From an uncultured virus (IMG/VR IMGVR_UViG_3300046454_000431) (Duplodnaviria; Heunggongvirae; Uroviricota; Caudoviricetes), in the IMG/VR virus record IMGVR_UViG_3300046454_000431: a stretch of 64,000 nucleotides of DNA. The stretch is one strand, 5' to 3'. The position numbers and the translations under genes are program-made. Shown one piece after another: positions 28,934 to 55,848 of the stretch. Within the stretch, counting starts at the first letter, position 1, and each line of letters begins with the position of its first letter. The notes beneath the pieces are model-generated. The model ran no database searches, had not been told where the DNA came from, and saw nothing but the letters and a program-made list of their open reading frames with translations.

Positions 28934-31468
28934 ATGCCATTGGTGCCGGGCTTGCCCCTGAACATCCGCCAGACCAATGGCGGCGCCCCGCCGGCCATTT
29001 CTCCGGGCGTCTCCATCCAGCATGACGTTCACGAGCCTCCCGGCGTCCCCGAAATGGACGACGCCGGCGCTGTCATCAAGATCGAGCATGCCGACGGCAG
29101 CGTCACTGTCTCGCTTGATGGCAAATCGCTGGTCGATAAGCCAGAGCAGAACACAGGCTGGTTCGCCAACCTGGCCGAAAAGCTTCCGGAAGACGATCTG
29201 AGCGGCATTGCCGACGATTTGCTGCGCGGGATCGACGAGGATCTGACCAGCCGCAACGACTGGATCGAAGAGCGCGCCCAGGGCATCAAGCTGCTCGGCC
29301 TCAAGATCGAGATCCCCAATTTGCAGTCGGCGGCGGACGGCGCCCCGGTGGACGGCATGTCAAAAGTGCGGCATCCGCTGCTGCAGGAGGCGGTGCTCCG
29401 CTTTCAAGCCAACTGCCGCTCCGAAATGCTGCCCACCGACGGGCCGATCAAGATCCGCGATGACGGCAGCAACTCCAATCTCCCTCGTGACGCACTGGCG
29501 ACCGCCCTTGAAAAAGACCTCAATCATTATCTCACTGTCACTGCGACCGAATACTATCCCGACACCGACAAGATGTTCCTTCTGCTGGGCTTTGGCGGCA
29601 CGGCATTCAAGAAAGTGTACAACTGCCCGCTGCGTAATCGGCCAGTTTCTGAATCGGTTGACGCCAACGACCTCATCGTCAACGACGCCGCCACCGACCT
29701 CGCCAACGCCAAGCGTGTTACCCATCGATCTATGATGCGGCCCTCGACGGTCAGGCGCATGCAGATAATCGGCGCCTATCGCGACATCGACCTCGATACG
29801 CCCAAGCCGCAGACGCTCGACGCTGCGCAGGAGGCGGCTAAAAACCAGCAAGGGATCCAGACCAACACCACGAGGCCCGACGACCGTGACCGCGAGATCT
29901 ACGAGTGCTATTGCGAACTCGATCTCAAAGGCTACGAGCACAAGTACAAAGGCAAGATTTCGGGCCTTGAGATCCCGTACCGGGTCACCATCGACCTCTC
30001 CAGCCGCAAAATCCTCTCGGTCGTCAGAAACTACGATGAGGACACGAAGGAGCTTCCTGAAGCTAGAGAGACATTCGTCAAATATACCTACGTACCGGGC
30101 CTCGGCTTCTACGATATCGGACTCCTTCATATATTGGGCAATACCACCAACGCTGTTACTGCTGCTTGGCGCGAGTTGCTGGACGCTGGAATGTTTAACA
30201 ACTTTCCCGGCTTTCTCATGGCTGATACGGGAGCCAGACAGAACACGAATATCTTCCGCGTACCGCCGGGCGGCGGCGTCCTCGTCAAGACGGGCGGTCT
30301 TCCCATCAATCAGGCGATTATGCCACTTCCTTACCAGCCGCCGTCTCAAGCTCTGATGGCCCTGGTCGATAACATGGTGCAGACCGGCCAGCGCAGCGGC
30401 GGCACCGCCGAACTGCCGGCCAACGAAGGCAAGGCCGAAATCCCCGTCGGCACCATCCTGGCGATGATCGAGCAGGCCCAGAAGGTGCTGAACAACGTCC
30501 ACAAGCGCATGCACTCGGCGCAATCGCAGGAATTTCGCCTGCTGATACGCTGCTTCAAGGAGAACCCCAAGGCGTTCTGGCAGCGCAACAAGAAGCCGTC
30601 CGCGCCGTGGGACGAGCAGAACTTCCGCGCCGCGCTCGATCAGGCCGACCTGACCCCGCAGGCCGATCCGAATACGTCGAGCCATGGCCAGCGCGTGATG
30701 AAGATCATGGCGCTCAAGCAGTTGCAGCAGCAAAACCCCAGTCTCTACGACCCCATCGCCATCGATACGGCGGCGCTGCAGGCGCTGGGCTGGAACAATC
30801 CGCAGCAATTCATGGCGCCGCCGAGCGCCCAGGCCGCGCCTCCCCCGCAACTCATCCAGCAGCAGGCTGAGACGGCGGCGAAGACCCTCACCTCGCAGGC
30901 GGCGATGGTCACCGCCCAGGCGCGGGCCAAGGAGGCCGGCGCCCGCGCCATGAACCTGATGGCGGAAGCCCAGACCATGGGCATGGACGAAACCGGCCAG
31001 ATCCAGCAGGACACGCCGGTCGATCAGCACCGCGCCGAATCGGAGCGCATCAAGGCCAACGCGCATGCGCAGCAGGCCGACACTCACCAATCCGTCATGC
31101 AGGCCAAGTCCCAGGCCGACCTGCTGAACGCCCAGACGCGGGCCAAGGAAATCCAATTGAAGCTGGGCGAACTGTCGATGAAGGATTCGCACCACGACGA
31201 CGAGCAGCGCCTCAAGGCGAGGCAGAGCGCCGTCGATATGGCCAAGCAGGTCATGGACACCCGTGCCGAAGACCAGCGCACCGCCGCCGAGATCCATCAC
31301 GATCACACCATACTGAGCCGCGAGCAGGAGCACGATCACGCGATCACCGAAAAGACCCACGCGCATGAGAAGGAATTGGAGGGCGTGAAGAAAGCGGCGG
31401 CTATCGCGGTCGCTAAAGCCAAACCGAAACCCAAGCCTGCAGCCGCCAAGCCAAAGGCCAAGAAATGA
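28934..31468 (+). CDS. Portal protein with a long C-terminal helical extension
   Basis: Follows terL; HPLLQEAV.RFQA, GTAFKKVY, GFYDIGLLH and AMIEQAQKV..VHKRMH; Q/A-rich coiled coil. Confidence 0.85.
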   Translation: MPLVPGLPLNIRQTNGGAPPAISPGVSIQHDVHEPPGVPEMDDAGAVIKIEHADGSVTVSLDGKSLVDKPEQNTGWFANLAEKLPEDDLSGIADDLLRGIDEDLTSRNDWIEERAQGIKLLGLKIEIPNLQSAADGAPVDGMSKVRHPLLQEAVLRFQANCRSEMLPTDGPIKIRDDGSNSNLPRDALATALEKDLNHYLTVTATEYYPDTDKMFLLLGFGGTAFKKVYNCPLRNRPVSESVDANDLIVNDAATDLANAKRVTHRSMMRPSTVRRMQIIGAYRDIDLDTPKPQTLDAAQEAAKNQQGIQTNTTRPDDRDREIYECYCELDLKGYEHKYKGKISGLEIPYRVTIDLSSRKILSVVRNYDEDTKELPEARETFVKYTYVPGLGFYDIGLLHILGNTTNAVTAAWRELLDAGMFNNFPGFLMADTGARQNTNIFRVPPGGGVLVKTGGLPINQAIMPLPYQPPSQALMALVDNMVQTGQRSGGTAELPANEGKAEIPVGTILAMIEQAQKVLNNVHKRMHSAQSQEFRLLIRCFKENPKAFWQRNKKPSAPWDEQNFRAALDQADLTPQADPNTSSHGQRVMKIMALKQLQQQNPSLYDPIAIDTAALQALGWNNPQQFMAPPSAQAAPPPQLIQQQAETAAKTLTSQAAMVTAQARAKEAGARAMNLMAEAQTMGMDETGQIQQDTPVDQHRAESERIKANAHAQQADTHQSVMQAKSQADLLNAQTRAKEIQLKLGELSMKDSHHDDEQRLKARQSAVDMAKQVMDTRAEDQRTAAEIHHDHTILSREQEHDHAITEKTHAHEKELEGVKKAAAIAVAKAKPKPKPAAAKPKAKK

Positions 31469-33681
31469 ACGAGCGCGCGAAAGCCCTTGGCTTCGATCCG
31501 TCGCAGACGTGGTTTCACGGCTCAACTAAGGATCTGCCGGCTTTCGCCGCCAAGCGCGCTCCGCGCAGCGAGCAAATGGGCCTGGAAGGCGTTCACCTTG
31601 CGCAAAATCCGGATTTTGCCTCCCATTACGCCGAAGGGCCTGGCGGCAACGTCACGCCAGTTCATGTGCGCGGCAATATTCTCGACGCCACCCAGCTTAT
31701 CCCCGAAGGCGGCGAGCATCACGCCATTCTCGATAAGCTGCTGAAGGGAACAGGCCGCAAGCCATACTGGAACTCTGATGAGCAGGGGCGTCGATTCGCC
31801 CCGCCGCTTCAGGGTCATATCGACGCCGTCAGCCCGCAAAAGGCCAAGCGCGTCATCCAGGAACACGGCTACGACGGCGTCAAATACGATGCTCGATACG
31901 GATCATTGCAGCCTGGAGGCCGCAGCGCGAGCATTTCAAACAAAAGCCCCGCAGTGGTGATGTTCGACCCATCGAATATCCGGGCCAGGACTGCACAATT
32001 CGACCCCCAGCAAGCAGGGAGCGCGGAACTAATGGCATCGAGAGGCGGTAAGGCGATCCACTCTGCGCTCCTGACGGCCAAGAGCCTTTATGACAAGCTG
32101 CCGCATGTCGTCGGCGGCGGGGCGCCGATGGCCAAGGGCGGCGCTGCGCTGGCGCCGATTCCCCAGATCATCATGCCGGGCGATCACCCGGCCCGCATCG
32201 ACACCCGGCTGGCGACCGGGGCCAAGCCGCTCGATCTGGGGCCAGGGCCGCGCACCGTCAACATGGCTGCGTTGCGGGCGACGCCGGCGCTGTTCGACAA
32301 GAACGTCGATATCCTGCGGCACTACCCGAATGTTTCGAAAAGGGCGGCGAAGCTGTCGAACCCGGATATGGCCGAGCATTTCATCAATCACGTCAAGGAC
32401 AACCTGCTGTGGCTGCACGATCAGGTGCCCAACGAAACCCGGCAGCGGTCCAAATTGTGGTACGACGGCGCCAACAAGCTGGCCAAGGAGTGGGCGCAAA
32501 AATACGGCGTCTCGGAGGCGTCCGCCGCCGGCGCGCTGGCCGCGCTGTCGCCGCAGAAGGACTGGTTTCAGAACGTGTCGCTGGCCGAGCGCGTCCTGCA
32601 TGCGATGAAGGGGCGCGGCAATAACGCATATCATGGTGAAACCTTTTCGCCTGAAATGGAGGGCACCTATCGCGGCCTGGACAAGCTGGCCACCGAGAAG
32701 AACGAGCCAATCTTCCAGGCGATCAGGGGCAAGTCGCTGGGCGACATCGACGACATGAAGCACATTCCCGGCGACGAGCGCGCGGTCATGAAGGCGCTGT
32801 GGATCCGGATGCACGATCAGACCCACGGCGATCCCGGCTACAAGATCGCCACGCCGGAAGGTCATTTTGGCGAGGTCGCCCGGAACGCCGACGGATCGCC
32901 ATCGAGGGCGGGCTGGGGTTCGCTGGGCGAAATCGGCAAGGCGGTGCAGGCCATCGAGAGCAATGGCGATCCGACCTTCATGAACCGCCTGATGGGCGAG
33001 CGCCACAAGGTTCGCAATTTCTACAATAACATCCTCGATCCCAACTCCCAGCACGGCGACGTCACCATCGACACCCATGCGGTCGCCGCCGGCCTGCTGC
33101 GCGCGCTGTCGGGCAATTCGCTTGAGGTGGCGCACAATTTCAGCAACTACGCCGGCAAGGGCGTTCCCGGCGCCGGCGGCTCCAACGCCACCGGCGTGAA
33201 CGGAACCTATCCGCTCTACGCCGACGCCTATCGCCAAGCCGCCAAAGAGCGCGGTATACTGCCGCGCGAAATGCAATCGATTACGTGGGAGGCGATCAGA
33301 GGATTGTTCCCCGACACCTTCAAAACTGATAAAAACAACGCCCATATCGACAGCATCTGGAACGACTACAAGAACGGAAAGAAGGGAATCGACGATGTCC
33401 GCAAAGAAATCCACGACTTCGCGGGGGGCATCCGGCCACCGGAGTGGCACGACACCTCTGGAACGCCTGATGCACCGGTTCGGGGTGCCAGTGGACCGGG
33501 ACTCGTACCTGGCCCTGGATCACGCGGGCCAGCCCCCCAAGGAATTATCGGCGGAACAGGAAATGGACCTCCCGGAGCACCTGCGCCGCAAGCACCCCGG
33601 CAGTCGGGGCTGATCCTGCCGCCAGGTTATGCCTGCGGCGGCATGATCGACAAAGCATTGGCCGCGACACGGCCCCGGTAA
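31465..33681 (+). CDS. ADP-ribosyltransferase-like (ART-PolyVal type) domain fused to an HhH-GPD glycosylase-like domain
   Basis: N-terminal WFHGS, ASHYA, GYDGV and FDPSNIR; C-terminal WY, ALSPQ, KVRNFYNNI, VTIDTHA and QSITW. Confidence 0.65.
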   Translation: MNERAKALGFDPSQTWFHGSTKDLPAFAAKRAPRSEQMGLEGVHLAQNPDFASHYAEGPGGNVTPVHVRGNILDATQLIPEGGEHHAILDKLLKGTGRKPYWNSDEQGRRFAPPLQGHIDAVSPQKAKRVIQEHGYDGVKYDARYGSLQPGGRSASISNKSPAVVMFDPSNIRARTAQFDPQQAGSAELMASRGGKAIHSALLTAKSLYDKLPHVVGGGAPMAKGGAALAPIPQIIMPGDHPARIDTRLATGAKPLDLGPGPRTVNMAALRATPALFDKNVDILRHYPNVSKRAAKLSNPDMAEHFINHVKDNLLWLHDQVPNETRQRSKLWYDGANKLAKEWAQKYGVSEASAAGALAALSPQKDWFQNVSLAERVLHAMKGRGNNAYHGETFSPEMEGTYRGLDKLATEKNEPIFQAIRGKSLGDIDDMKHIPGDERAVMKALWIRMHDQTHGDPGYKIATPEGHFGEVARNADGSPSRAGWGSLGEIGKAVQAIESNGDPTFMNRLMGERHKVRNFYNNILDPNSQHGDVTIDTHAVAAGLLRALSGNSLEVAHNFSNYAGKGVPGAGGSNATGVNGTYPLYADAYRQAAKERGILPREMQSITWEAIRGLFPDTFKTDKNNAHIDSIWNDYKNGKKGIDDVRKEIHDFAGGIRPPEWHDTSGTPDAPVRGASGPGLVPGPGSRGPAPQGIIGGTGNGPPGAPAPQAPRQSGLILPPGYACGGMIDKALAATRPR

Positions 33682-45524: not shown

Positions 45525-46228
45525 GCGCCGCAGACATCCTCAACCTTCCTGTCGCCATTGGCCTTTCAGGCGAGGAGTATATCGAGGTCGTCCAGGGCGG
45601 CACTCTCCATCGCGCCACGGTGAAGCACTTCAGCAAGCGGCTGCTGGAGGGCGAGATCCCCAATGGCGTCCTCGTGCTGGATGGCAAGGAGGGGCCGCCG
45701 GGAGGCGCGGGTCCGCCTGGTCCGCCGGGGCCTGATGGTCCGCCTGGCCCGCCGGGGCCACGGGGAGGGCAGGGTGAGCCTGGCCCGTTCGGGCCGACCT
45801 TCACGCCGATGTCTGGCGCTGTCATCCGCTCGTGGTCCGTCTACGACAACAATACGCACTTGTTCAAGGAACGCTACATTCTGGGGGCCGACTTCCAGAA
45901 GAAGAACTTCTACCCGCAACTGATGCTCGCGCCCGCCGTGTCGGCGCTCGGCAACCGGCTGCGGCTGCGGGCCAAGGTCTGGTGTGTGGGCGCCGCCCAC
46001 GATTGCGCGATCAACGGCGGCATGTTCGTGAACGGCGAGAAGGCGGTGAGCGTCGCGCGCGCCTTTGCCGATTCGCCGCTGCTGTTCGACTATGAGTGCA
46101 TCCCGACTGTTCTGACGCCGCAGATGTTCTCCTTCTGTATCGGCCCGTCAGACGTCGGCGTCGATTGCATTGTCAACGTGGGCCGACTGGTTCAGAGTTG
46201 CCTCGTCATCGAGGAGATCCAGGCGTGA
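45521..46228 (+). CDS. Short collagen-like fibre protein
   Basis: NLPVA..LSG.E..E.VQ anchor; about 13 Gly-X-Y triplets. Confidence 0.75.
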   Translation: MSAADILNLPVAIGLSGEEYIEVVQGGTLHRATVKHFSKRLLEGEIPNGVLVLDGKEGPPGGAGPPGPPGPDGPPGPPGPRGGQGEPGPFGPTFTPMSGAVIRSWSVYDNNTHLFKERYILGADFQKKNFYPQLMLAPAVSALGNRLRLRAKVWCVGAAHDCAINGGMFVNGEKAVSVARAFADSPLLFDYECIPTVLTPQMFSFCIGPSDVGVDCIVNVGRLVQSCLVIEEIQA

Positions 46229-49200
46229 GCAATGTCCAGATCCCGAACCTGCCCGCCGCCGGCGCCCTGACTGGCACAGAGCAATTGGAGCTTGTGCAGG
46301 CTGGCGTCTCGGTGCGCGCTACGATTGCGCAAATTGTCACTGACGCGCAAGTTCCGACAGCATCTGACACCCTGCCAGGGATGGACGGCGGGGCCTCGGC
46401 GGGCGTCGAGGTGACCTATTCGCGCGGCGATCACATCCACCCGACCGACACCTCGCGCTATGCGGCGTCGAATCCGGCGAATTATGTGACGGCGGCTGCG
46501 CTGGGGCCTTATGCCCTGATCGACAGCCAGGCGTTCACGGGGACGCCCTCGATGCCGACAGGCGCCACGGGCGTCACGCAGGCGGCGGCGGATAGTTCGA
46601 CTAAGCTGGCGACCACCGCCTTCGTTAAGGCCCAGGGTTACCAGGTGGCGTCCGCGCTCGGCACGATGTCCACCCAGAACGCCAATAGTGTGGCGATCAC
46701 CGGCGGCGCCATCAACGGGACGACCGTCGGGGCCACCACGCCTAGCACCGGCGCCTTCACTAATCTGTCGGCGTCGGGGACGGTGTCCGGAGCGGGGTTC
46801 ACCGCGCTGCTCGCGCCCTATGCGCTGACGGCGAATGTTCCTGTTGCTTCCTCGACCAATCCCTCGATGGACGGGACGGTGGCGATTGGCGTAGGGACGA
46901 CGTGGGCGCGCGCCGATCACGTCCACCCTTCCGATACTTCGCGCTATGCGGCGTCGAACCCAGCCGGCTATCAGACGGCGGCGCAAGTCACAGCTTCCCT
47001 GGGGCCTTACGCCCTGATCAATTCTCAGGTGTTCACGGGGACGCCCTCGCTGCCGACCGGCACGATTGGCGTGACGCAGGCGCCTGGCGATAGCTCGACC
47101 AAATTGGCGACCACGGCTTTCGTCGGGGCGGCGACCACCGCCTTGGGCCTCGGCACGATGGCGGCGCAGAACGCCAACAGTGTCGCGATCACGGGCGGCG
47201 CCATCAACAACACGGCGATTGGCGCGACGACGCGCAGCAGCGGCGCTTTCACCACGCTGGCGGCCAACGGCGCGGCGACCTTCACATCCTCGCTGACGGC
47301 CTCGCCAGCCAGCGCCAATGTCACTCTGTCGCCCACCGGCACCGGCACGGTCATCATCAACCCGGCGACGGCTGGCTCCATCGACAATACGGCGGTGGGC
47401 GCGACGACGCCCAGCACCGGCAAGTTTACCACGCTGTCCGCGACGTCGATCAACAGCACCCCGATTGGCCCCACGACGCCCAGCACGGGCGCCTTCACCA
47501 CTTTGAGCGCCAATGGCGCGGCGACGTTTACAGGCTCGCTGACGGCCTCGCCAGCCAGCGCCAACGTCACGTTTTCACCGACCGGCACCGGCACGGTCAC
47601 CATCAACCCGGCGACGCTCGGCCATGTCGATAACACGGCAGTGGGCGCGACCACGCCCAGCACGGGCGCCTTTACCAATTTGTCCGCGACCGGCACGGTG
47701 TCGGGCGCCGGCTTCACCACGCTGCTGAACCCCTATGCGCTGGTCAATTCTCAGGTGTTCACCGGGACGCCATCGTTGCCGACTGGCACCATTGGCGTGA
47801 CGCAGGCGACGGCCACCAACAACACGACGTTGGCGACTACCGCCTTTGTCAAGGCGCAGGCTTATCTGACCGGCAATCAGACCATCACCCATACGGGCGA
47901 CGCCACCGGATCTGGCACCACCAGCATCCCGATGACGGTCGTCCAGCTTCAGGGCAGGCCGCTCGCCGCCACCGCGCCTGCCACCGGCAACCTGATGGGC
48001 TGGAACGGCTCGACGTGGGGGCCGGTTGCGGCTGGCGCGGCGGCGGCTGGCGGCACCAACGGCCAGATCCAGTACAACAATGGCGGCGTCCTCGGCGGCT
48101 TGACGCTCAACGGCACCGGCAATCCAGTCGGCACGACCAGCCCCACCTTGGCAGGCTCGGTGGTCATCAACGGCACGGCGCTCGGCAGTGTCGCGGGCAA
48201 CTCGCAGATCGTCTTCTCGCCGGGTTCAACCGACACCAATGGCGAGTCGCTGCGCACTGAAATCCAGCGCAAGTCGGCGGGATCGGATTGGAGCACCGCC
48301 GCTTGGCAGATCTACCGTCAGGTAGACAGCACCAAGATGGGCTATATCGAATTTAACAGCGGAAGCTCCAAGCCAATAGCTTTCGGTAATGGCGTCACTG
48401 AACATGCCTATTTCGACAGCGGTAAAAACCTGACCATTTTCGGCAATGTGGCGGCGACTGAAGTTTCTTACACCAATGGTGTAAACCCAGCGGTTGTTCT
48501 GAGTAAAAGCGCGTCAGGTGGCACGTCTCGCATCGTCGGCTCGATGGCGGGTAGCCCCAGATGGCAGGAAATGCTTGGAGATGCATCAGCCGAAAGTGGC
48601 AGCAATGCTGGATCAAATTATGGTCTGCAAAGATACACTGATGCTGGGGTTCTTATCGACGCGCCGTTTGCTATCAATCGCGCTTCTGGCATCGCCACGT
48701 TTTCGCAGGGGGTTGCTGCTGCGAGTTACACGGTAAATGCCTTAGCCGCTACCGATGCCGCTTTATACCTCAACAAGCCCGCATCTGGTCGAGCTTCAAC
48801 TGTGTACGGCCAGATGGCTGGCTCGACTCGTTGGGGCATGAATTTTGGCGATTCTGGGGCTGAAGCCACAGGCAACGTCGGTTCTGATTTTGGCCTCGCC
48901 AGATTTGACAACACGGGCGCGTTTATCGACAACCCGCTAACTATTAACCGTGCAACTGGCGCGGTGACGCTGAACCAGACCAACTCTAGCGGTGTGCTAA
49001 ACCTCACTGCAACAGCGGGCGTGTGGCCGCAGATTTCGCTCAATAAAGCGGCCAGCGGCGTGGGCGCTGTTGTAACTGGCACTAAGGCTGGCGTCGCTCG
49101 CTGGCAGGTGTCGCTGGGCGATCAGACCGCTGAAGGCACTGCCAATGCCGGGTCAAATTTCACAATATCCACTTTTTCCGATGCAGGCGCGTACGTAGGC

Positions 49201-50469
49201 AGTCCGTTTCTTATTGAGCGCGCCTCTGGTTACCTCCGGTTGAACGGCAACGGAGCCACTCCTACCACAGCATCCCCTGCGCCTTTTGGTCACAGTCAGG
49301 TTGTGCTCAACAAGGCTGGATCGACAAAAGCATGCAATATTGTTGGTCAAAACAATGCTTTGCCTAGATGGGAAATTGATATTGGAGACACCACCGCAGA
49401 GAGTGGCAGCAATGCCGGATCTAATTTTGGCATAGCAAGGTTCAATGATGCTGGTGCAGGCATAGACTATCCGTTCTCCATACTTCGTTCATCTGGGATT
49501 GCCACTTTTTCTAAAGCCGTAGTCGTACAAAGCTTCGACAATCTAGGTCAGCTTCGCCTTGTTGGCGGCAACTATGGCGCTGGCATACGCAATGATGGCG
49601 CAAGCTGCTACCTCTTGCAGACTGCGGTGAGCGACCAGTATGGGGCGTTCAGCACTGCCCGTCCGTTCTCGTGGAACCTGTCCAACGGCGCTGTTAATAT
49701 CGATGGCGGCGCTGCTGGAACTACATTTGGCGGCGCAATATCTACATCAGGTCAAATATACACTAGCGGAAGCATAATAGGCAGCGGTATTTATGCTTCT
49801 GGCGGTCAGATGACCGTACAAACTAGCGGCGCTAACGGGTACATCAATCAATGCGACGCTTCTGGCAATGGCGGGCAGTTCAGAAACCTTACCATACGCG
49901 GGTTGGACGCTGGCTATTCTGGGCAAGTCAACTTGAGCGCGATAACCCTCGCTACGGCTCTTGTTACGTCCAACGGGATTATTGACGCTACGAATGGTTT
50001 TCGGTGCCGCCTTGGCGCTCCCGGCGGCGCGCTGGGCGCAAACGTGTTCAGCTACTTCTGGAACACCGACAACCATCTCTACGGCTCTGTGGACGCCACC
50101 AATCTGGGCTGGATCGCGTGGTCTTCCGACTACCGCATCAAGCGGGACATTGCGCCGCTGCCGTCGATGTGGGACCGCGTCAAGGCGCTGAAGCCGATCA
50201 GCTATTTCCATAAGGATTGGACGCCAGAATGGGAGGCGCCGAAAGAAAATGGCGATGCGCCCGATCCACTGTTCAGGGACGATGGCGTAGAGAACTGGGG
50301 CTTCGTCGCGCACGAGCTTCAAGAGACGCTGATCCAGAGCGCGGCGACCGGCGTCAAAGATGAAGCCGGTCTGGTGCAGGCGCCCAACCCGTGGACGGTG
50401 ATCGCGACGCTGACCAAGGCGCTGCAAGAGGCAATGGCGCGCATCGAGGCGCTGGAGGCAAGGCCATGA
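46225..50469 (+). CDS. Long tail fibre 2 with a C-terminal S74 chaperone domain
   Basis: GAGGAG RBS with GTGA coupling; LATTAFV and GATTPSTGAFT repeats; four AESGSN-type modules; SDYRIKRD. Confidence 0.85.
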   Translation: MSNVQIPNLPAAGALTGTEQLELVQAGVSVRATIAQIVTDAQVPTASDTLPGMDGGASAGVEVTYSRGDHIHPTDTSRYAASNPANYVTAAALGPYALIDSQAFTGTPSMPTGATGVTQAAADSSTKLATTAFVKAQGYQVASALGTMSTQNANSVAITGGAINGTTVGATTPSTGAFTNLSASGTVSGAGFTALLAPYALTANVPVASSTNPSMDGTVAIGVGTTWARADHVHPSDTSRYAASNPAGYQTAAQVTASLGPYALINSQVFTGTPSLPTGTIGVTQAPGDSSTKLATTAFVGAATTALGLGTMAAQNANSVAITGGAINNTAIGATTRSSGAFTTLAANGAATFTSSLTASPASANVTLSPTGTGTVIINPATAGSIDNTAVGATTPSTGKFTTLSATSINSTPIGPTTPSTGAFTTLSANGAATFTGSLTASPASANVTFSPTGTGTVTINPATLGHVDNTAVGATTPSTGAFTNLSATGTVSGAGFTTLLNPYALVNSQVFTGTPSLPTGTIGVTQATATNNTTLATTAFVKAQAYLTGNQTITHTGDATGSGTTSIPMTVVQLQGRPLAATAPATGNLMGWNGSTWGPVAAGAAAAGGTNGQIQYNNGGVLGGLTLNGTGNPVGTTSPTLAGSVVINGTALGSVAGNSQIVFSPGSTDTNGESLRTEIQRKSAGSDWSTAAWQIYRQVDSTKMGYIEFNSGSSKPIAFGNGVTEHAYFDSGKNLTIFGNVAATEVSYTNGVNPAVVLSKSASGGTSRIVGSMAGSPRWQEMLGDASAESGSNAGSNYGLQRYTDAGVLIDAPFAINRASGIATFSQGVAAASYTVNALAATDAALYLNKPASGRASTVYGQMAGSTRWGMNFGDSGAEATGNVGSDFGLARFDNTGAFIDNPLTINRATGAVTLNQTNSSGVLNLTATAGVWPQISLNKAASGVGAVVTGTKAGVARWQVSLGDQTAEGTANAGSNFTISTFSDAGAYVGSPFLIERASGYLRLNGNGATPTTASPAPFGHSQVVLNKAGSTKACNIVGQNNALPRWEIDIGDTTAESGSNAGSNFGIARFNDAGAGIDYPFSILRSSGIATFSKAVVVQSFDNLGQLRLVGGNYGAGIRNDGASCYLLQTAVSDQYGAFSTARPFSWNLSNGAVNIDGGAAGTTFGGAISTSGQIYTSGSIIGSGIYASGGQMTVQTSGANGYINQCDASGNGGQFRNLTIRGLDAGYSGQVNLSAITLATALVTSNGIIDATNGFRCRLGAPGGALGANVFSYFWNTDNHLYGSVDATNLGWIAWSSDYRIKRDIAPLPSMWDRVKALKPISYFHKDWTPEWEAPKENGDAPDPLFRDDGVENWGFVAHELQETLIQSAATGVKDEAGLVQAPNPWTVIATLTKALQEAMARIEALEARP

Positions 50470-52052: not shown

Positions 52053-54239
52053 ATGCCGCACCAGGTTCTCAAAGTCCAGCCCGGCGTCAACACCAACGAG
52101 ACGCCTGTCCTGAACATGGCCGGCATTTCGGAATGCGACAAAATCCGCTTCAGGCAAGATCCAGCCGGCTTGGGCCTGGTCGAGAAGCTGGGCGGCTGGA
52201 CGCGCTTCTACACCGGCGTTTTCGATTACGCCGTGCGCCATCTCTTCGTGTGGCAGGAAATCGACATCGACAAGTTCGTGGCTGTCGGGATGGCTGGCCT
52301 GGGCGGCGTCGAGCTTTTGCGGGCGCAGGATGAGCTTAATCCGATCACCGGTCTGCCCACGGGTTTCTCGACAGCGACGCCCAGCGGCGCCCTGCCTCTC
52401 ACGCCGCTGTTCAGGAATACGGACGCTCCGAACACTACGATCCTGGTTTCGACCGTGGCCGGCAGTCCGTTCGTCTCCATAACCGATCCATCGCTCGACC
52501 AGATCCACACCACGGATTCGGTCTATTTCGCCACCCATGTCGCCGTCGGCGGCCTTGTCCTGTTCGGGCAATATGCGGTCTACGCGACGACGTCTTTCAC
52601 CAGCTATCAGATCGTCGCGCGCACGGTGCTCGGCGCGCCGCAGGCGGCATCTACGACTGCGGGTTCGACAACCGCTGTTCCGCCGCTCTTCACCACGGCG
52701 ACCAACAGTTATGAAATTACTGTCACGCTGCCGAAACACGGCTACGTGGTTGGTGATGTCTTCCCGCTGCTGATCGCCACCGCCGTCGCCAACATCACGC
52801 TCGCGCCGCGCGAGTACGAGATCCAGCGGATCACCGACGTGGATCACTTCGTCATCCTGGCGAACGAGATCGCGACGTCAGGCGCGTCGGCCTATCCGAA
52901 CGGCGGCAACTTCCGCCTGATTTATAATATCGGCGGCGCCCCCAGCAACATCATCAGCGGCTACGGCGCCGGCATTTACGGCGGCACGGCTGGAGACGGC
53001 GGCTATGGCCGAAACAGTGGCGGCGCGCCGACAGCGCCAGGAACGCCGGCCTCGGCCACGGATTGGAACTTCGACAACTGGGGCAGCATCCTGCTCGCCA
53101 GCCCCAGGAACGCCGTCGTCGATGGCATTCCGGTGTCTGGCATCTACCAGTGGGAGGATGAGACAGGCGCCAAGGTGCTCGCGGTGATCGCGGAGGCGCC
53201 GCCTTGCAATGATGGCTTTTTCGTCGGCATGCCGCAGCGCCAGATTATCACTTGGGGTTCCAGCTTCACCGGCATCCCAGACCCGCTGCTCGTCCGCTGG
53301 TGCGACGTCAACGATTACACCGTTTGGGCGGCGACGATCACCAACCAGGCCGGATCTTACCGCATCCCGAAAGGCTCCAAGATCGTCGGCGCCCTCCAGG
53401 CCGCGCAGCAAGGCATCCTCTGGACCGATATCGGCGTCTGGTCGATGCAGTATATCGGCCAGCCCTACATCTACAGCTTCAATGAACTCGGCACTGGCTG
53501 CGGCATGCTTGCGCAGAAGGGGGCGGGGGCGGTCAATGGCGTGGTCTACTGGATCAGCCACCGCCAGTTCTTCATGCTGTCGGGGGCCGGCGTTCAACCA
53601 GTCCCGTGCCCCGTCTGGGACATCGTCTTTCAGAGCATCGACCGCCGTTATTATGACAACGTCCGGGTCGCGCCCAATTCGATGTTCAATGAGATCTCCT
53701 GGTTCTTCACCTCGGTCAATTCCCCAAATCACGAGAACGATTCCTACGTCAAGTTCAACTACGTGCTGAACGCCTGGGACTACGGCACGATTGCCCGCTC
53801 GGCATGGGTCAACCAAAGCGTCCTCGGCTCTCCGATGGGCGCGGGCGTCAGCCCGGAGGATGGTCAGATCCGCCTGTTCCAGCATGAGCGGACGCCCGAC
53901 GCCGACGGTCAGCCAATGCACTCGTGGTTTGCGACCGGCTATTTTGCGATGGCGGAAGGCGACAGCAAGATTTTCGTCGATGAGATCTGGCCCGACATGA
54001 AGTGGGGCGCCTATGGCGTCACCAAGAATGCGACGGTCGATCTGACGTTCACGGCCAAGGATTTTCCCGCTCAAGACCCGCTGATGACGAACAGTTTTTC
54101 CTTCACGGTGGGATCGACTTACGTCACGCCGCGCCTTCGCGGGCGCTTGATGCAGGTGACCCTTGGGAGCAATGATCGCGGATCGTTCTGGCGCCTCGGC
54201 GGCATGCGGTATCGCGCAGCGCCAGACGGGAAATACTGA
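52053..54239 (+). CDS. Tail nozzle / P22 gp10-like stabilisation protein (putative)
   Basis: RFR...EKLGGW, W.FDNWG, DPLLVRWCD, NQAGS, FNEISWF and WRLG..R....DG. Confidence 0.7.
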   Translation: MPHQVLKVQPGVNTNETPVLNMAGISECDKIRFRQDPAGLGLVEKLGGWTRFYTGVFDYAVRHLFVWQEIDIDKFVAVGMAGLGGVELLRAQDELNPITGLPTGFSTATPSGALPLTPLFRNTDAPNTTILVSTVAGSPFVSITDPSLDQIHTTDSVYFATHVAVGGLVLFGQYAVYATTSFTSYQIVARTVLGAPQAASTTAGSTTAVPPLFTTATNSYEITVTLPKHGYVVGDVFPLLIATAVANITLAPREYEIQRITDVDHFVILANEIATSGASAYPNGGNFRLIYNIGGAPSNIISGYGAGIYGGTAGDGGYGRNSGGAPTAPGTPASATDWNFDNWGSILLASPRNAVVDGIPVSGIYQWEDETGAKVLAVIAEAPPCNDGFFVGMPQRQIITWGSSFTGIPDPLLVRWCDVNDYTVWAATITNQAGSYRIPKGSKIVGALQAAQQGILWTDIGVWSMQYIGQPYIYSFNELGTGCGMLAQKGAGAVNGVVYWISHRQFFMLSGAGVQPVPCPVWDIVFQSIDRRYYDNVRVAPNSMFNEISWFFTSVNSPNHENDSYVKFNYVLNAWDYGTIARSAWVNQSVLGSPMGAGVSPEDGQIRLFQHERTPDADGQPMHSWFATGYFAMAEGDSKIFVDEIWPDMKWGAYGVTKNATVDLTFTAKDFPAQDPLMTNSFSFTVGSTYVTPRLRGRLMQVTLGSNDRGSFWRLGGMRYRAAPDGKY

Positions 54240-54649
54240 TGACAGCTTCTCTTGGCGACCTCCTCTCCGCAGCCAAAAACATCGCGCAGGCGATCAATGA
54301 CGCGGCGCGGGCCTATGTCGGCGTCCAGGGTTCCCAGGTGTCGCTCACGCTAACGGCTCCTACGCAGGTCGTTCATGGCGCGGGACGGGTCGCCATGCTC
54401 AATGTGCATGCGGCGGGATCGACTTCAGGCAACCTTTGCGACACTACCGATGTCGGCAACAGCAACAACCCCAAGCACATCATCGCCACGATTCCGATGA
54501 GCGTCGGCTTTTATTTTGTCAACACCACCTTCAACGATGGACTGCTCGTTTTGCCTGGGACGGGCCAGTCGGTCACCGTGACCTATTCGACCGGATCGGC
54601 GGCGGGCAACCAGTCGTCCTCCGCTGCCAACCAGGCGAGAGGACGCTGA
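54239..54649 (+). CDS. Small tail-associated protein
   Basis: TGATG coupling; beta-rich. Confidence 0.6.
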   Translation: MTASLGDLLSAAKNIAQAINDAARAYVGVQGSQVSLTLTAPTQVVHGAGRVAMLNVHAAGSTSGNLCDTTDVGNSNNPKHIIATIPMSVGFYFVNTTFNDGLLVLPGTGQSVTVTYSTGSAAGNQSSSAANQARGR

Positions 54650-54650
54650 C

Positions 54651-55340
54651 ATGCCACTGATCAAATCCGGATCCAAGGAGGCCGTCAGCCAGAATATCAG
54701 GACGGAGATCGGCGCCGGCAAGCCGCAGAAACAGGCGGTCGCCATCGCCCTCGATGTCGCGAGGCGCGCACGGGACGCCGGCGGCGGCATGCCGACGCTC
54801 TCAAAACTGGACACGCCGCCTGATGTTCCGAGCACGGTTCACGCGCACCTGTCGGCCAAGGTCCACACCGGCCCGATCCACAGCGCGGTCGCGGGCCGCA
54901 CCGATCACCTGCCCGTCCATGTTCCGAGCGGCAGCTATGTCATTCCCGCCGACGTCGTCAGCGGCATGGGCGAAGGAAACACTAATGCCGGATTCAAGAA
55001 CATCAAGCGGATGTTTGGTGGCCTGCCTCGTGGGGCCGGCGAGCAACCCTATGATCATAAAGGCGGACCTTATGGCGCTGGGTCTGCTCCCTATAACATC
55101 GATCCCAGCAAGCCCTATGGCGAACCGCTACCTAGTGGGCATGCTGCTGGCGGGAAAACCGGTAAGGATGTCAAGGTCGTTGTGGCAGGCGGCGAATACA
55201 CGCTGACGCCTGAAGAGGTGATGGCGGCGGGCGACGGCGACCTGGATCGCGGCCACCGCGTTCTCGATGATTTTGTCAAACAAATGCGCGGCCACATCGT
55301 CAAGACGATGTCAAAGCTGCCTGGACCGAAGCGAGACTAG
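54651..55340 (+). CDS. Stand-alone protein with two copies of the tape-measure-type G(S/E)Y(V/T) domain
   Basis: GRTDHLP...GSYVIPADVVS.MGEG and GGEYTLTPEEV...GDGD..GH..LD; N-terminal MPL..G...NI..E...GKP.KQAVAIAL. Confidence 0.7.
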   Translation: MPLIKSGSKEAVSQNIRTEIGAGKPQKQAVAIALDVARRARDAGGGMPTLSKLDTPPDVPSTVHAHLSAKVHTGPIHSAVAGRTDHLPVHVPSGSYVIPADVVSGMGEGNTNAGFKNIKRMFGGLPRGAGEQPYDHKGGPYGAGSAPYNIDPSKPYGEPLPSGHAAGGKTGKDVKVVVAGGEYTLTPEEVMAAGDGDLDRGHRVLDDFVKQMRGHIVKTMSKLPGPKRD

Positions 55341-55344
55341 AGCA

Positions 55345-55848
55345 ATGAGCGACATACGAGTGAGATACGGCGTTCCAGCCGACGTGCATAATTTCATGGA
55401 CCTGACATCCATGTGCGCGGAAGAGAACGGGCTGCTCGCGGTGAACACCAGGAAAGTGCTGGAAGAGGTGTGGGCCAGCCTGAACTGGGACCACGGCGTG
55501 ATCGGCGTGATCGAGGGTGACGAAGGCATGCTGGAGGCCGGCATCCTGCTCCGCGTGGACACCACGCCTTATAGCGTCGAGGAAGTCCTGTGCGAACGCG
55601 CGATCTACGTGCGGCCAGAATTTCGCAAAGTGCAGCGCAGCCTTTATCAGGGCGGGCGCGCCAGCTATCTGTGCGAGTTCGCCAAGAACGCCGCCATGCG
55701 CCTCGAATTACCCCTCCTAATCAGTATTTTGTCAACGCACCGCGCTGCTGGTAAGGTGAGACTTTACGAGCGGCATTTCGGGACGCCGGCGGGCGCCTAT
55801 TGGCTTTGGAACGCGAAGACGGGCCATAAGCAAGAAGCTGCGGAGTAG
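55345..55848 (+). CDS. GNAT-fold acetyltransferase-like protein
   Basis: VRY...D, IYVRPEFRK and RLYER; typical position before podovirus ejection genes. Confidence 0.6.
   Translation: MSDIRVRYGVPADVHNFMDLTSMCAEENGLLAVNTRKVLEEVWASLNWDHGVIGVIEGDEGMLEAGILLRVDTTPYSVEEVLCERAIYVRPEFRKVQRSLYQGGRASYLCEFAKNAAMRLELPLLISILSTHRAAGKVRLYERHFGTPAGAYWLWNAKTGHKQEAAE

Follow-up and report, generated by a model that had tools for sequence, protein, structure and literature searches.

The tape measure protein (TMP) of Pseudomonas phage JBD30 contains a segment that its authors predicted to form a 'hook', a beta-hairpin followed by two helices, and they speculate that, after a cut at residue 1066, this hook anchors the TMP inside the baseplate in the manner of the end of T5 pb2* (PMC11445458). 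In T5 itself, pb2 is cut after R1127 into pb2* and pb2C, and after triggering the last stretch of pb2*, its C-terminal 43 residues, occupies a crevice in the opened hub (PMC10038345). For T7, the operon that encodes the internal virion proteins (IVPs) begins directly after tubular tail B, IVP-A (gp13) and its syntenic counterparts match acetyltransferases, and domains bound for the cytoplasm are described as 'variably host'ed by IVPs (Hardies et al. 2016, PMC4819975). For a further class, the polyvalent proteins in which the ART-PolyVal and InPase domains were defined, packaging and injection are predicted (Iyer et al. 2017, PMC5512222). Here we consider how a small gene of an uncultured virus of the Caudoviricetes (IMG/VR record IMGVR_UViG_3300046454_000431) compares with these systems. 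The stretch analysed, 64,000 nucleotides long, is referred to as the window; the gene occupies positions 54651..55340 on the + strand, and its product of 229 residues is referred to as p229. The two repeats that p229 contains are, by sequence comparison, the same unit that the TMPs of siphophages carry once or twice each, and we suggest below that p229 may be the empty frame of a carrier protein that is held in the virion and ejected.

The p229 gene starts with ATG, 1 nt past the stop codon of the upstream gene, and ends in a stop codon, 4 nt beyond which the next open reading frame (ORF) begins. Its product is built from an N-terminal helical hairpin (the N module) followed by R1 and R2, two copies of a roughly 45-residue unit. 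The N module matches phrog_2423 (E 1.1e-19), with residues 1-42 aligned to positions 1-42 of the 52 in the profile, and residues 170-199 in R2 match positions 58-87 of phrog_11341 (E 3.6e-5); with that 678-position profile p229 has only positions 16-88 in common, which span two units, and not the full length. The internal duplication exceeds chance. A Smith-Waterman alignment of the two halves of the protein scores 46, against 24.4 +/- 5.0 for shuffled sequences, of which 7 in 2000 reach 46, and the R1 and R2 sub-alignments match each other with E 5e-5 over 44 columns (hhalign). A hidden Markov model (HMM) of R2 recovers R1 at i-E 0.022 in a search of the six frames of the window, where the HMMs found no further copy of the p229 modules. 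These results, and the layout that the two repeats share in the AlphaFold2 model described below, bear out an initial annotation of the gene, made from the sequence, which had recognised two internal copies (the segments it cited are residues 94-114 and 181-201) behind a distinct N-terminal module, now identified with phrog_2423. The same annotation placed an A-G-G motif before each copy; this holds for R2 (residues 166-168) and not for R1, which is preceded by a degenerate H-T-G-P-I only. The other two A-G-G motifs of the protein are at residues 43-45, after the N module, and at 179-181, in the hairpin turn of R2.

Homology of the repeats to TMP units was assessed by aligning profiles with hhalign. 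The family alignment of R1 matches an alignment of seven TMP units with probability 88.8, P 2.5e-6 and score 31.1, and that of R2 does so with P 5e-4 and score 21.6; the N module, taken as a control, gives P 0.23. When the columns of the TMP alignment were shuffled, the maximum scores were 17.9 for R1 and 15.7 for R2, so that 0 of 200 shuffles reached either observed score, and reversed alignments scored 10.2 and 8.7, respectively. A comparison of this kind had been named in the initial annotation as the check on its assignment, and its outcome is positive.

The proteins H66_0059 and F116p58, which match phrog_11341 over its full length and are members of it, provide an intermediate, with two units at their N-termini. 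Residues 11-50 of H66_0059 match positions 674-713 of the 810 in phrog_25241, 'tail length tape measure protein' (E 2.2e-7), and a search with residues 1-90 matched 160 phage records, with the best TMP at E 1e-6. Among the 60 matches listed for that search, 40 are annotated TMPs and 2 more are the same gene labelled endolysin; the annotated TMPs come from phages of Gordonia, Mycobacterium (including TM4), Arthrobacter, Rhodococcus, Dinoroseobacter, Rhizobium, Proteus and Enterobacter. In the Mycobacterium phages Findley and ZoeJ, the unit-bearing gene 17 is annotated 'endolysin', while gene 17 of TM4, BoostSeason and DismalStressor, at nearly identical coordinates, is annotated as a TMP; the 'endolysin' label probably derives from the embedded lysin motif. 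We fetched eight of the TMPs. All eight have Pfam matches, which include TMP domains in seven and an SLT domain only in Braxoaddie. The R2 HMM scores best at the unit in 8/8 of these proteins, and the R1 HMM does so in 7/8.

In the TMPs, the unit follows a common pattern: a tag of the form F/Y/L-A-x-G-G-x-I/V, then G-P-G-T-G-T-S-D-S-I, then S-N-G-E-Y/F-V, then a helical part. The TMPs of GMA3 and Phishy have two adjacent copies, as p229 does. The presence of this pattern agrees with the statement in the initial annotation that segments of the type GxGxSDxIPAxLSxGE(F/Y)V occur in TMPs; its placement of them at TMP C-termini is right for the three proteobacterial phages examined, where the unit lies at 87-93% of the length, and wrong for the five actinophages, where it lies at 57-70%. 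An embedded lysin domain was found in GMA3, Braxoaddie, Phishy and TM4, and the unit is upstream of it in all four; the TM4 unit occupies residues 699-736 and precedes the peptidoglycan-hydrolase motif, whose centre is W853. The unit is without a Pfam model, and its motif strings were not found in the literature searched. In an hmmscan of single units against PHROGs and Pfam (E<=10), phrog_11341 was the only match. A tblastn search of residues 66-229 against phages brought up the TMP of Rhodococcus phage Mbo2 at E = 1, a candidate that the HMMs did not confirm and that we set aside.

p229 itself is not a TMP, by family or by context: it has 229 residues, its neighbours are nozzle and ejection-protein genes, and the TMP domains of Pfam (PhageMin_Tail, TMP_2, TMP_3 and Tape_meas_lam_C) were not found in it. 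It has no Pfam match at all at E<=0.1 for the whole protein or at E<=10 for its parts. Neither Pfam nor PHROGs gives it an enzymatic domain, and p229 therefore lacks the combination of two or more domains with disparate activities by which a polyvalent protein is recognised.

We folded the whole protein with AlphaFold2 from an alignment of 97 sequences (pLDDT 78.5, pTM 0.55). In the model, each repeat consists of a beta-hairpin, a short helix and a long helix, the N module is a helical hairpin, and the linkers are disordered. The repeats thus appear to share the shape of the JBD30 hook, as a prediction on both sides. The sequences of two solved entries contain the unit, those of Douge gp16 (8zdo, residues 964-1013 and 1409-1483) and JBD30 gp46 (8rk3, residues 1018-1072), and neither resolves it, since the Douge structure shows residues 1658-1699 only and the JBD30 structure the last 33 residues only. 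A search of PDB sequences with the family HMM gave a ribosomal protein at E 0.16 only. In BFVD, the matches were uncharacterised phage proteins, proteins consisting of the N module only, a prohead serine protease with an N module, and a TMP at E 1.1 with probability 0.03.

The N module has a wider distribution of its own. Alone, it forms tiny ORFs, partly unannotated, in many T7-like and other phages, among them Klebsiella phages, Enterobacter phage phiEap-2, Ralstonia phage RSB1 and Burkholderia phages BcepNY3 and BcepF1. It also stands at the N-terminus of the 554-residue prohead serine protease just mentioned (BFVD A0A8S5NQY6), and it weakly matches phrog_3778, 'head maturation protease'.

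The relatives of p229 are numerous and nearly all metagenomic, on contigs of up to about 69 kb. At E<=1e-3 we found 3108 of 125-401 residues and 338 of 402-2000 residues; a larger library gave 2827 cluster representatives at E<=1e-3, with 1579 at E<=1e-10. Among the best 150 representatives, 105 have the order N-R1-R2 and 43 have R1-R2, with single cases of R2 only and of N-R1. The N module is present in 106 of the 150 and begins at residue 1 in nearly all of them, and in representatives of more than 300 residues, N begins at residue 1 in most, and R2 ends no more than 2 residues from the C-terminus in 73 of the 73 that have it. Between these constant ends, length varies by insertion at two sites: between N and R1 in most cases, where inserts reach about 900 residues, and between R1 and R2, for example in the relatives P0133 (NUDIX), P0193, P0148 and P0153. 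Both sites correspond to the stretches that are disordered in the p229 model.

The inserts contain ART-PolyVal, InPase, NUDIX, GNAT, methyltransferase, GP88, DUF7178 and DUF6098 domains as well as unknown ones. Pfam recognises such domains in 27 of the 120 longer relatives listed (ART-PolyVal in 15, InPase in 4, GNAT in 3, GP88 in 3, NUDIX in 2 and methyltransferase in 1) and no TMP family in any of the 120. Several relatives combine two activities in the way that defines polyvalent proteins, P0301 for instance with ART plus GNAT. A form with an ART insert (locus L088) and two with InPase inserts (L101 and L104), all between N and R1, occupy the same slot between the nozzle and IVP-A-like genes as p229 does, and across the lineage the gene encodes from about 190 to more than 700 residues. 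Since these relatives carry their inserts in the same slot, the protein of the window is the passenger-free form of a variable carrier gene. We also considered whether the GNAT inserts link the family to the acetyltransferase-like gene downstream of p229, as in a Rosetta-stone fusion, and rejected the idea; that gene has no similarity to them.

The modules are separated by short motifs of the type [RKHYFLM]-A-x-G-G. These occur 384 times in the 150 representatives, against 27.5 +/- 5.2 in shuffled sequences (maximum 43), and they are placed at the joints: after the N module in 69 of 106 representatives, within 40 residues ahead of R1 in 120 of 149, and at the start of R2 in 97 of 149. In the 97-sequence alignment (A2), 67 of 96 rows have the tag at junction 1, behind the N module, and 77 of 94 have it at junction 2, where R2 starts. 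The multi-domain relatives P0122 and P0134 have it between their passengers, too. Because of this excess over shuffles and this placement, we regard the A-x-G-G tags as real junction marks. In p229, R2 opens with H-A-A-G-G-K-T, which fits the A-x-G-G-x-[IV] opening, while R1 has only the degenerate form given above; at junction 1, G44 and G45 are at least 90% conserved. The TMP units examined likewise begin with an A-x-G-G tag. In T5 pb2, the residues directly after the mapped cut are A-E-G-G; thus one mapped TMP cut falls at such a tag, and the tags of the p229 family are putative cutting sites. A segment of the form G-G-[GS]-I-[HK]-I ... R-G-[KT]-F, whose G-G turn resembles the junction tags, lies upstream of the cargo-protein-1 domain in crassvirus gp45 homologues (L125, L129, L132 and L134). 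Cargo protein 1 of the crAss phages (PF25725) was itself considered as a relative of p229 and not confirmed: the language-model lead (0.77-0.85) was under the 0.9 line, hhalign comparisons with gp45 and with an alignment of 12 crassvirus domains yielded P 0.15-0.4 overall and P 0.15-0.3 for the alignment, and there was no Pfam match.

The genes of the window all lie on the + strand. Their PHROG matches include helicase, exonuclease, DNA polymerase, methyltransferase, the small and large terminase subunits, portal, tail spike, fibre and endolysin, with a weak match to a major head protein, and by this gene content the phage is podovirus-like. We scanned 39 proteins of the window against PHROGs, and 9 of these against Pfam as well; tape measure, tail tube and chaperone families were absent from the 39, consistent with the statement in the initial annotation that this phage has no tape measure gene. 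It is because the phage is podovirus-like and has no TMP match that the hook unit is free-standing here. The block around p229 runs from a 258-residue structural protein (p258) through a 728-residue nozzle-type protein, a 136-residue protein (p136), p229 and a 167-residue protein to a 1535-residue ejection protein and two more large proteins. The initial annotation had located the gene between the nozzle and the GNAT/pilot genes, and this location is upheld, with the nozzle-type gene on one side and the acetyltransferase-like and ejection genes on the other. In a related GenBank record (MW202675.1, 46% identity), the series reads 'phage stabilization protein', the counterpart of the nozzle-type protein, hypothetical, hypothetical, 'putative acetyltransferase' and 'internal virion protein D', the counterpart of the 1535-residue protein. 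Because the T7 IVP operon follows tubular tail B and IVP-A matches acetyltransferases, we place p229 at the head of the IVP block.

This arrangement is widely conserved. Of 80 related viral loci, with identities as low as 43%, 78 have the nozzle gene upstream, and the remaining 2 start too near the p229 counterpart; 76 have the acetyltransferase-like gene downstream, and the remaining 4 end there. A further 35 loci have the nozzle gene upstream in 35 and the acetyltransferase-like gene downstream in 29, with the misses at contig ends. The order p258, nozzle, (p136), p229, IVP-A-like, large IVP is kept wherever the flank suffices. The gene is a core member of the nozzle-to-IVP block in a large lineage of uncultured podophages.

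These observations lead us to favour, with about even confidence, a reading in which p229 is the cargo-free chassis of a virion-held, ejected protein that is anchored by TMP-type hooks. Like TMPs and internal virion proteins, it would be housed in the particle, either at the portal or in the tail channel, and would leave ahead of the DNA. Docking to the channel wall would be the task of its two hook units, in keeping with the proposal for the JBD30 hook and with the observed position of the C-terminal end of T5 pb2*; the linkers would be the sites where passenger enzymes ride into the host, and the A-x-G-G tags could serve as hinges or as cutting sites that free the modules. Since the copy in the window has no passenger, its own role would be a structural one in loading, plugging or anchoring. 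The p229 locus lies among virion genes, which is also the context of polyvalent proteins. If this reading is correct, a single unit of proteins expelled before the DNA ties long- and short-tailed phages together, and the constant ends of the family, with ADP-ribosyltransferase, pyrophosphatase and other domains swapped between them, form a map of insertion-tolerant delivery sites. p229 would then also be a small soluble protein with which to probe the binding of TMP hooks and cutting at A-x-G-G.

Several points weigh against this reading. The N module is also found in small ORFs of the early regions of T7-like phages, which is a poor fit with a purely virion-targeting role. Direct HMMER searches from the p229 family reach neither TMPs nor PDB chains, so the link to TMPs depends on an intermediate or on comparing profiles with profiles. 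With either of two models, Foldseek gave no solved fold for p229 in the PDB (E<=0.001), and the best result of VIA-align against 48,161 chains, Z 4.7, covers the N-terminal hairpin only. In the account of JBD30, the anchoring of the hook is the authors' speculation on a prediction (PMC11445458), and neither solved structure shows the unit. T5 pb2 has no sequence match to the unit, and its anchor may therefore be unrelated. We infer presence in the virion, and H66_0059, which bears the unit, does not have the mark 'verified by mass spectrometry' that other H66 proteins carry. Finally, a chassis that stayed hooked to the tail could deliver cytoplasmic enzymes only if it were cut.

Alternatively, p229 might be a fixed part of the tail, such as a plug, a gatekeeper or a scaffold between nozzle and adaptor like T7 gp7.3, that is not ejected, with the enzymes of its relatives acting elsewhere or decorating the tail. 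The strict retention of the gene next to the nozzle gene would suit such a part, and the shortest related forms, of about 190 residues, have hardly any linker between N and R1 and are conserved nonetheless; T7 gp7.3 is itself small and helps the nozzle to assemble onto the adaptor (PMC11784390). The passengers argue otherwise, as the substrates of ART-PolyVal, InPase and NUDIX domains are cytoplasmic and the proteins in which these domains were defined are predicted to be injected, and so do the TMPs, which share the unit and are expelled at infection. We think it unlikely that p229 remains in the tail.

It is rather doubtful that the unit is a small processing module that cuts itself or A-x-G-G junctions, in cis or in trans. 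Were it one, the maturation cuts of TMPs would find an explanation, and p229, standing alone, would represent an enzyme or a substrate in minimal form, a proposal to which we likewise give little credence. Conservation could be read in this way: G82, R83, D85, E182 and D206 are invariant in the 97 sequences, and in R1 a strongly conserved stretch, residues 72-86, precedes the secondary structure of the hook, residues 72-101 being very strongly conserved. The idea stays alive because the tag marks the junctions, in the excess over shuffles reported above, and because T5 pb2 is cut directly ahead of A-E-G-G. The JBD30 authors, too, place a proposed cut where the hook ends, and in that part of the TMP they found no peptidase motif to account for it (PMC11445458). 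Set against this are the size of the unit, about 45 residues, which matched no known protease fold, the failure of R2 to keep the T/S-D of R1 and the TMP units, and T5 pb2, which is cut at the tag and has no detectable unit; a 1973 paper, by its title in the reference list of the T5 study, points to a host role in the pb2 cut (PMC10038345), and no cleavage products are known among family members. With T/S-D not kept in R2, pb2 cut without a detectable unit and no peptidase motif found in that part of the JBD30 TMP, the autoprocessing or trans-processing activity that the initial annotation ascribed to the unit is not supported.

A broader version of the same thought makes the hook unit and the [R/K/H]-A-x-G-G tag the two components of a general 'thread, dock and cut' system, in which the tag is the cut site and the unit positions or catalyses the cut. 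We regard it as speculative and rather improbable, as we do the accompanying suggestion that TMPs, podophage internal proteins and injected effector carriers are all its users. If true, it would give a common mechanism to TMP maturation cuts (lambda gpH, T5 pb2) and to the freeing of injected enzymes, and p229, which combines two units and two tags and lacks a passenger, would be its smallest natural test substrate.

That p229 is instead the counterpart of the small pore-forming ejection protein IVP-B (T7 gp14, P22 gp7), placed before IVP-A and part of a trans-envelope conduit, is very unlikely: the acetyltransferase-like gene is indeed followed directly by the 1535-residue protein with no IVP-B-like small gene in between, the T7 order is A, B, C, D, and the part of the T7 comparison that treats the F116 group identifies no IVP-A or IVP-B there (Hardies 2016, PMC4819975), but our PHROG and Pfam scans, made without a direct profile-profile comparison, gave no match to such families, no hydrophobic segment is evident in the sequence, and the p229 model, unlike the described IVPs, is not all-helical.

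If the chassis reading is right, finding a TMP-like motif in a small gene of a podophage does not by itself point to a tape measure. The positions of the p229 modules and of the neighbouring genes are given in Table 1.

Table 1. Modules of p229 and genes next to it, with positions in the window (E, strand; H, helix; numbering of residues as in p229).
Feature	Positions	Strand	Basis
Nozzle / tubular-tail-B-type protein, 728 residues	52053..54239	+	phrog_3287, E 5.6e-56
136-residue protein between nozzle gene and p229	54239..54649	+	No Pfam or PHROG match; in most, not all, related loci
p229, whole gene; cargo-free N-R1-R2 protein	54651..55340	+	ORF list, sequence
N module, residues 1-44; helical hairpin H9-21 + H26-42	54651..54782	+	phrog_2423; pLDDT 89-98
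Junction 1, residues 41-47, R-D-A-G-G-G-M; imperfect A-x-G-G tag	54771..54791	+	Conservation, tag count
Linker 1, residues 45-67; variable, low confidence	54783..54851	+	pLDDT 49-61
R1, residues 68-124; TMP-type hook unit, E87-92/E96-98/H100-106/H111-123	54852..55022	+	hhalign, AlphaFold2
Linker 2, residues 125-163; P-Y-G-rich, disordered	55023..55139	+	pLDDT 38-53
Junction 2, residues 164-169, H-A-A-G-G-K; canonical A-x-G-G tag	55140..55157	+	Tag count
R2, residues 165-229; second hook unit, E173-178/E183-185/H187-193/H198-222, reaches C-terminus	55143..55337	+	hhalign, phrog_11341
Acetyltransferase-like protein, 167 residues, IVP-A position	55345..55848	+	Counterpart in MW202675 'putative acetyltransferase'; no Pfam match
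Internal virion / ejection protein, 1535 residues	55854..60461	+	phrog_6121, phrog_4287 'DNA ejection protein'

The window is part (C1:69190-133189) of a longer record, G000:C1, of 138,254 bases. This record consists of two collinear genomes of about 69 kb, head to tail, whose blocks are 71-94% identical at an offset of about 69.3 kb, and it probably represents a chimera assembled from two strains, not the genome of a 138-kb phage; the real genome would therefore measure about 69 kb. A second copy of the p229 gene, encoding 230 residues, lies outside the window at C1:54518-55207.

Other features of the window and of related records deserve mention. Residues 280-330 of the 1535-residue ejection protein form a Peptidase_S74 (intramolecular chaperone) segment, which is unusual in an internal virion protein; the 1457-residue tail fibre (46096-50469, + strand) has such a segment at residues 1344-1412. 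Directly after the portal gene, a gene for 738 residues (31465-33681, + strand) matches phrog_3842/phrog_2878. The p229 relative P0209 matches phrog_3842/phrog_2878 and DUF7178, and has that domain fused ahead of R1-R2; in view of this fusion, the 738-residue gene may represent a second cargo-type protein of the phage, at the MuF position. Among the GenBank records, MW202675.1 (L001) is titled 'Myoviridae sp.' and MW202545.1 (L003) 'Siphoviridae sp.', yet their structural blocks are podovirus-like (stabilization/nozzle, internal virion protein D, SLT). In the same block, MW202545 encodes a 639-residue protein that has two adjacent units at its C-terminus.

How, then, does p229 compare with the systems described at the outset? 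The TMP hooks share with it the order of sequence features. In the hook of JBD30 gp46 (residues 1022-1066; 8rk3) and in the TMPs of TM4, Douge, GMA3 and R5C, as in the p229 unit, a tag (in p229 canonical before R2 and degenerate before R1) is followed by G-x-G-T-S/T-D (T/S-D in R1, not in R2), a G-E/S-Y/F-V strand and helices, and the hooks occur singly or as two adjacent copies, in proteins that travel through the tail. The difference is one of setting, since TMP hooks are embedded in proteins of 900-3200 residues with TMP Pfam domains in long-tailed phages, whereas two units make up most of the 229 residues of p229 in a podophage without a TMP match. T5 pb2 resembles the p229 family in its 'anchor, tag, enzyme domain' order and in being cut directly before an A-x-G-G tag; unlike p229, it is a true TMP, and it has no detectable similarity to the unit.

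The polyvalent proteins are comparable to the longer relatives of p229, in that both have ART and InPase domains, with NUDIX and GNAT as InPase-linked domains, and are encoded among virion genes, but the carriers reported for them are MuF and portal fusions, with no N-R1-R2 frame in the part of the survey concerned (PMC5512222), and p229 is without an enzymatic domain. T7 gp6.7 and gp7.3 and crAss001 gp45 offer a parallel of another kind, being proteins of small size or partly unfolded state that lie in the core, nozzle or tail barrel or at the portal and are ejected early; for these, in contrast to the TMP units, we found no sequence or profile similarity to p229. The T7 IVPs are similar to p229 in genomic position. 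The closest link in sequence is to F116p58 and H66_0059 of the F116-like Pseudomonas podophages (R1 HMM, 22.6 bits). Their units stand at the N-terminus of proteins of 675-695 residues that have an unrelated remainder and no phrog_2423 module, unlike p229; in common with it, they have two adjacent units with the tag, encoded in an ejection-protein block beside a giant virion protein.

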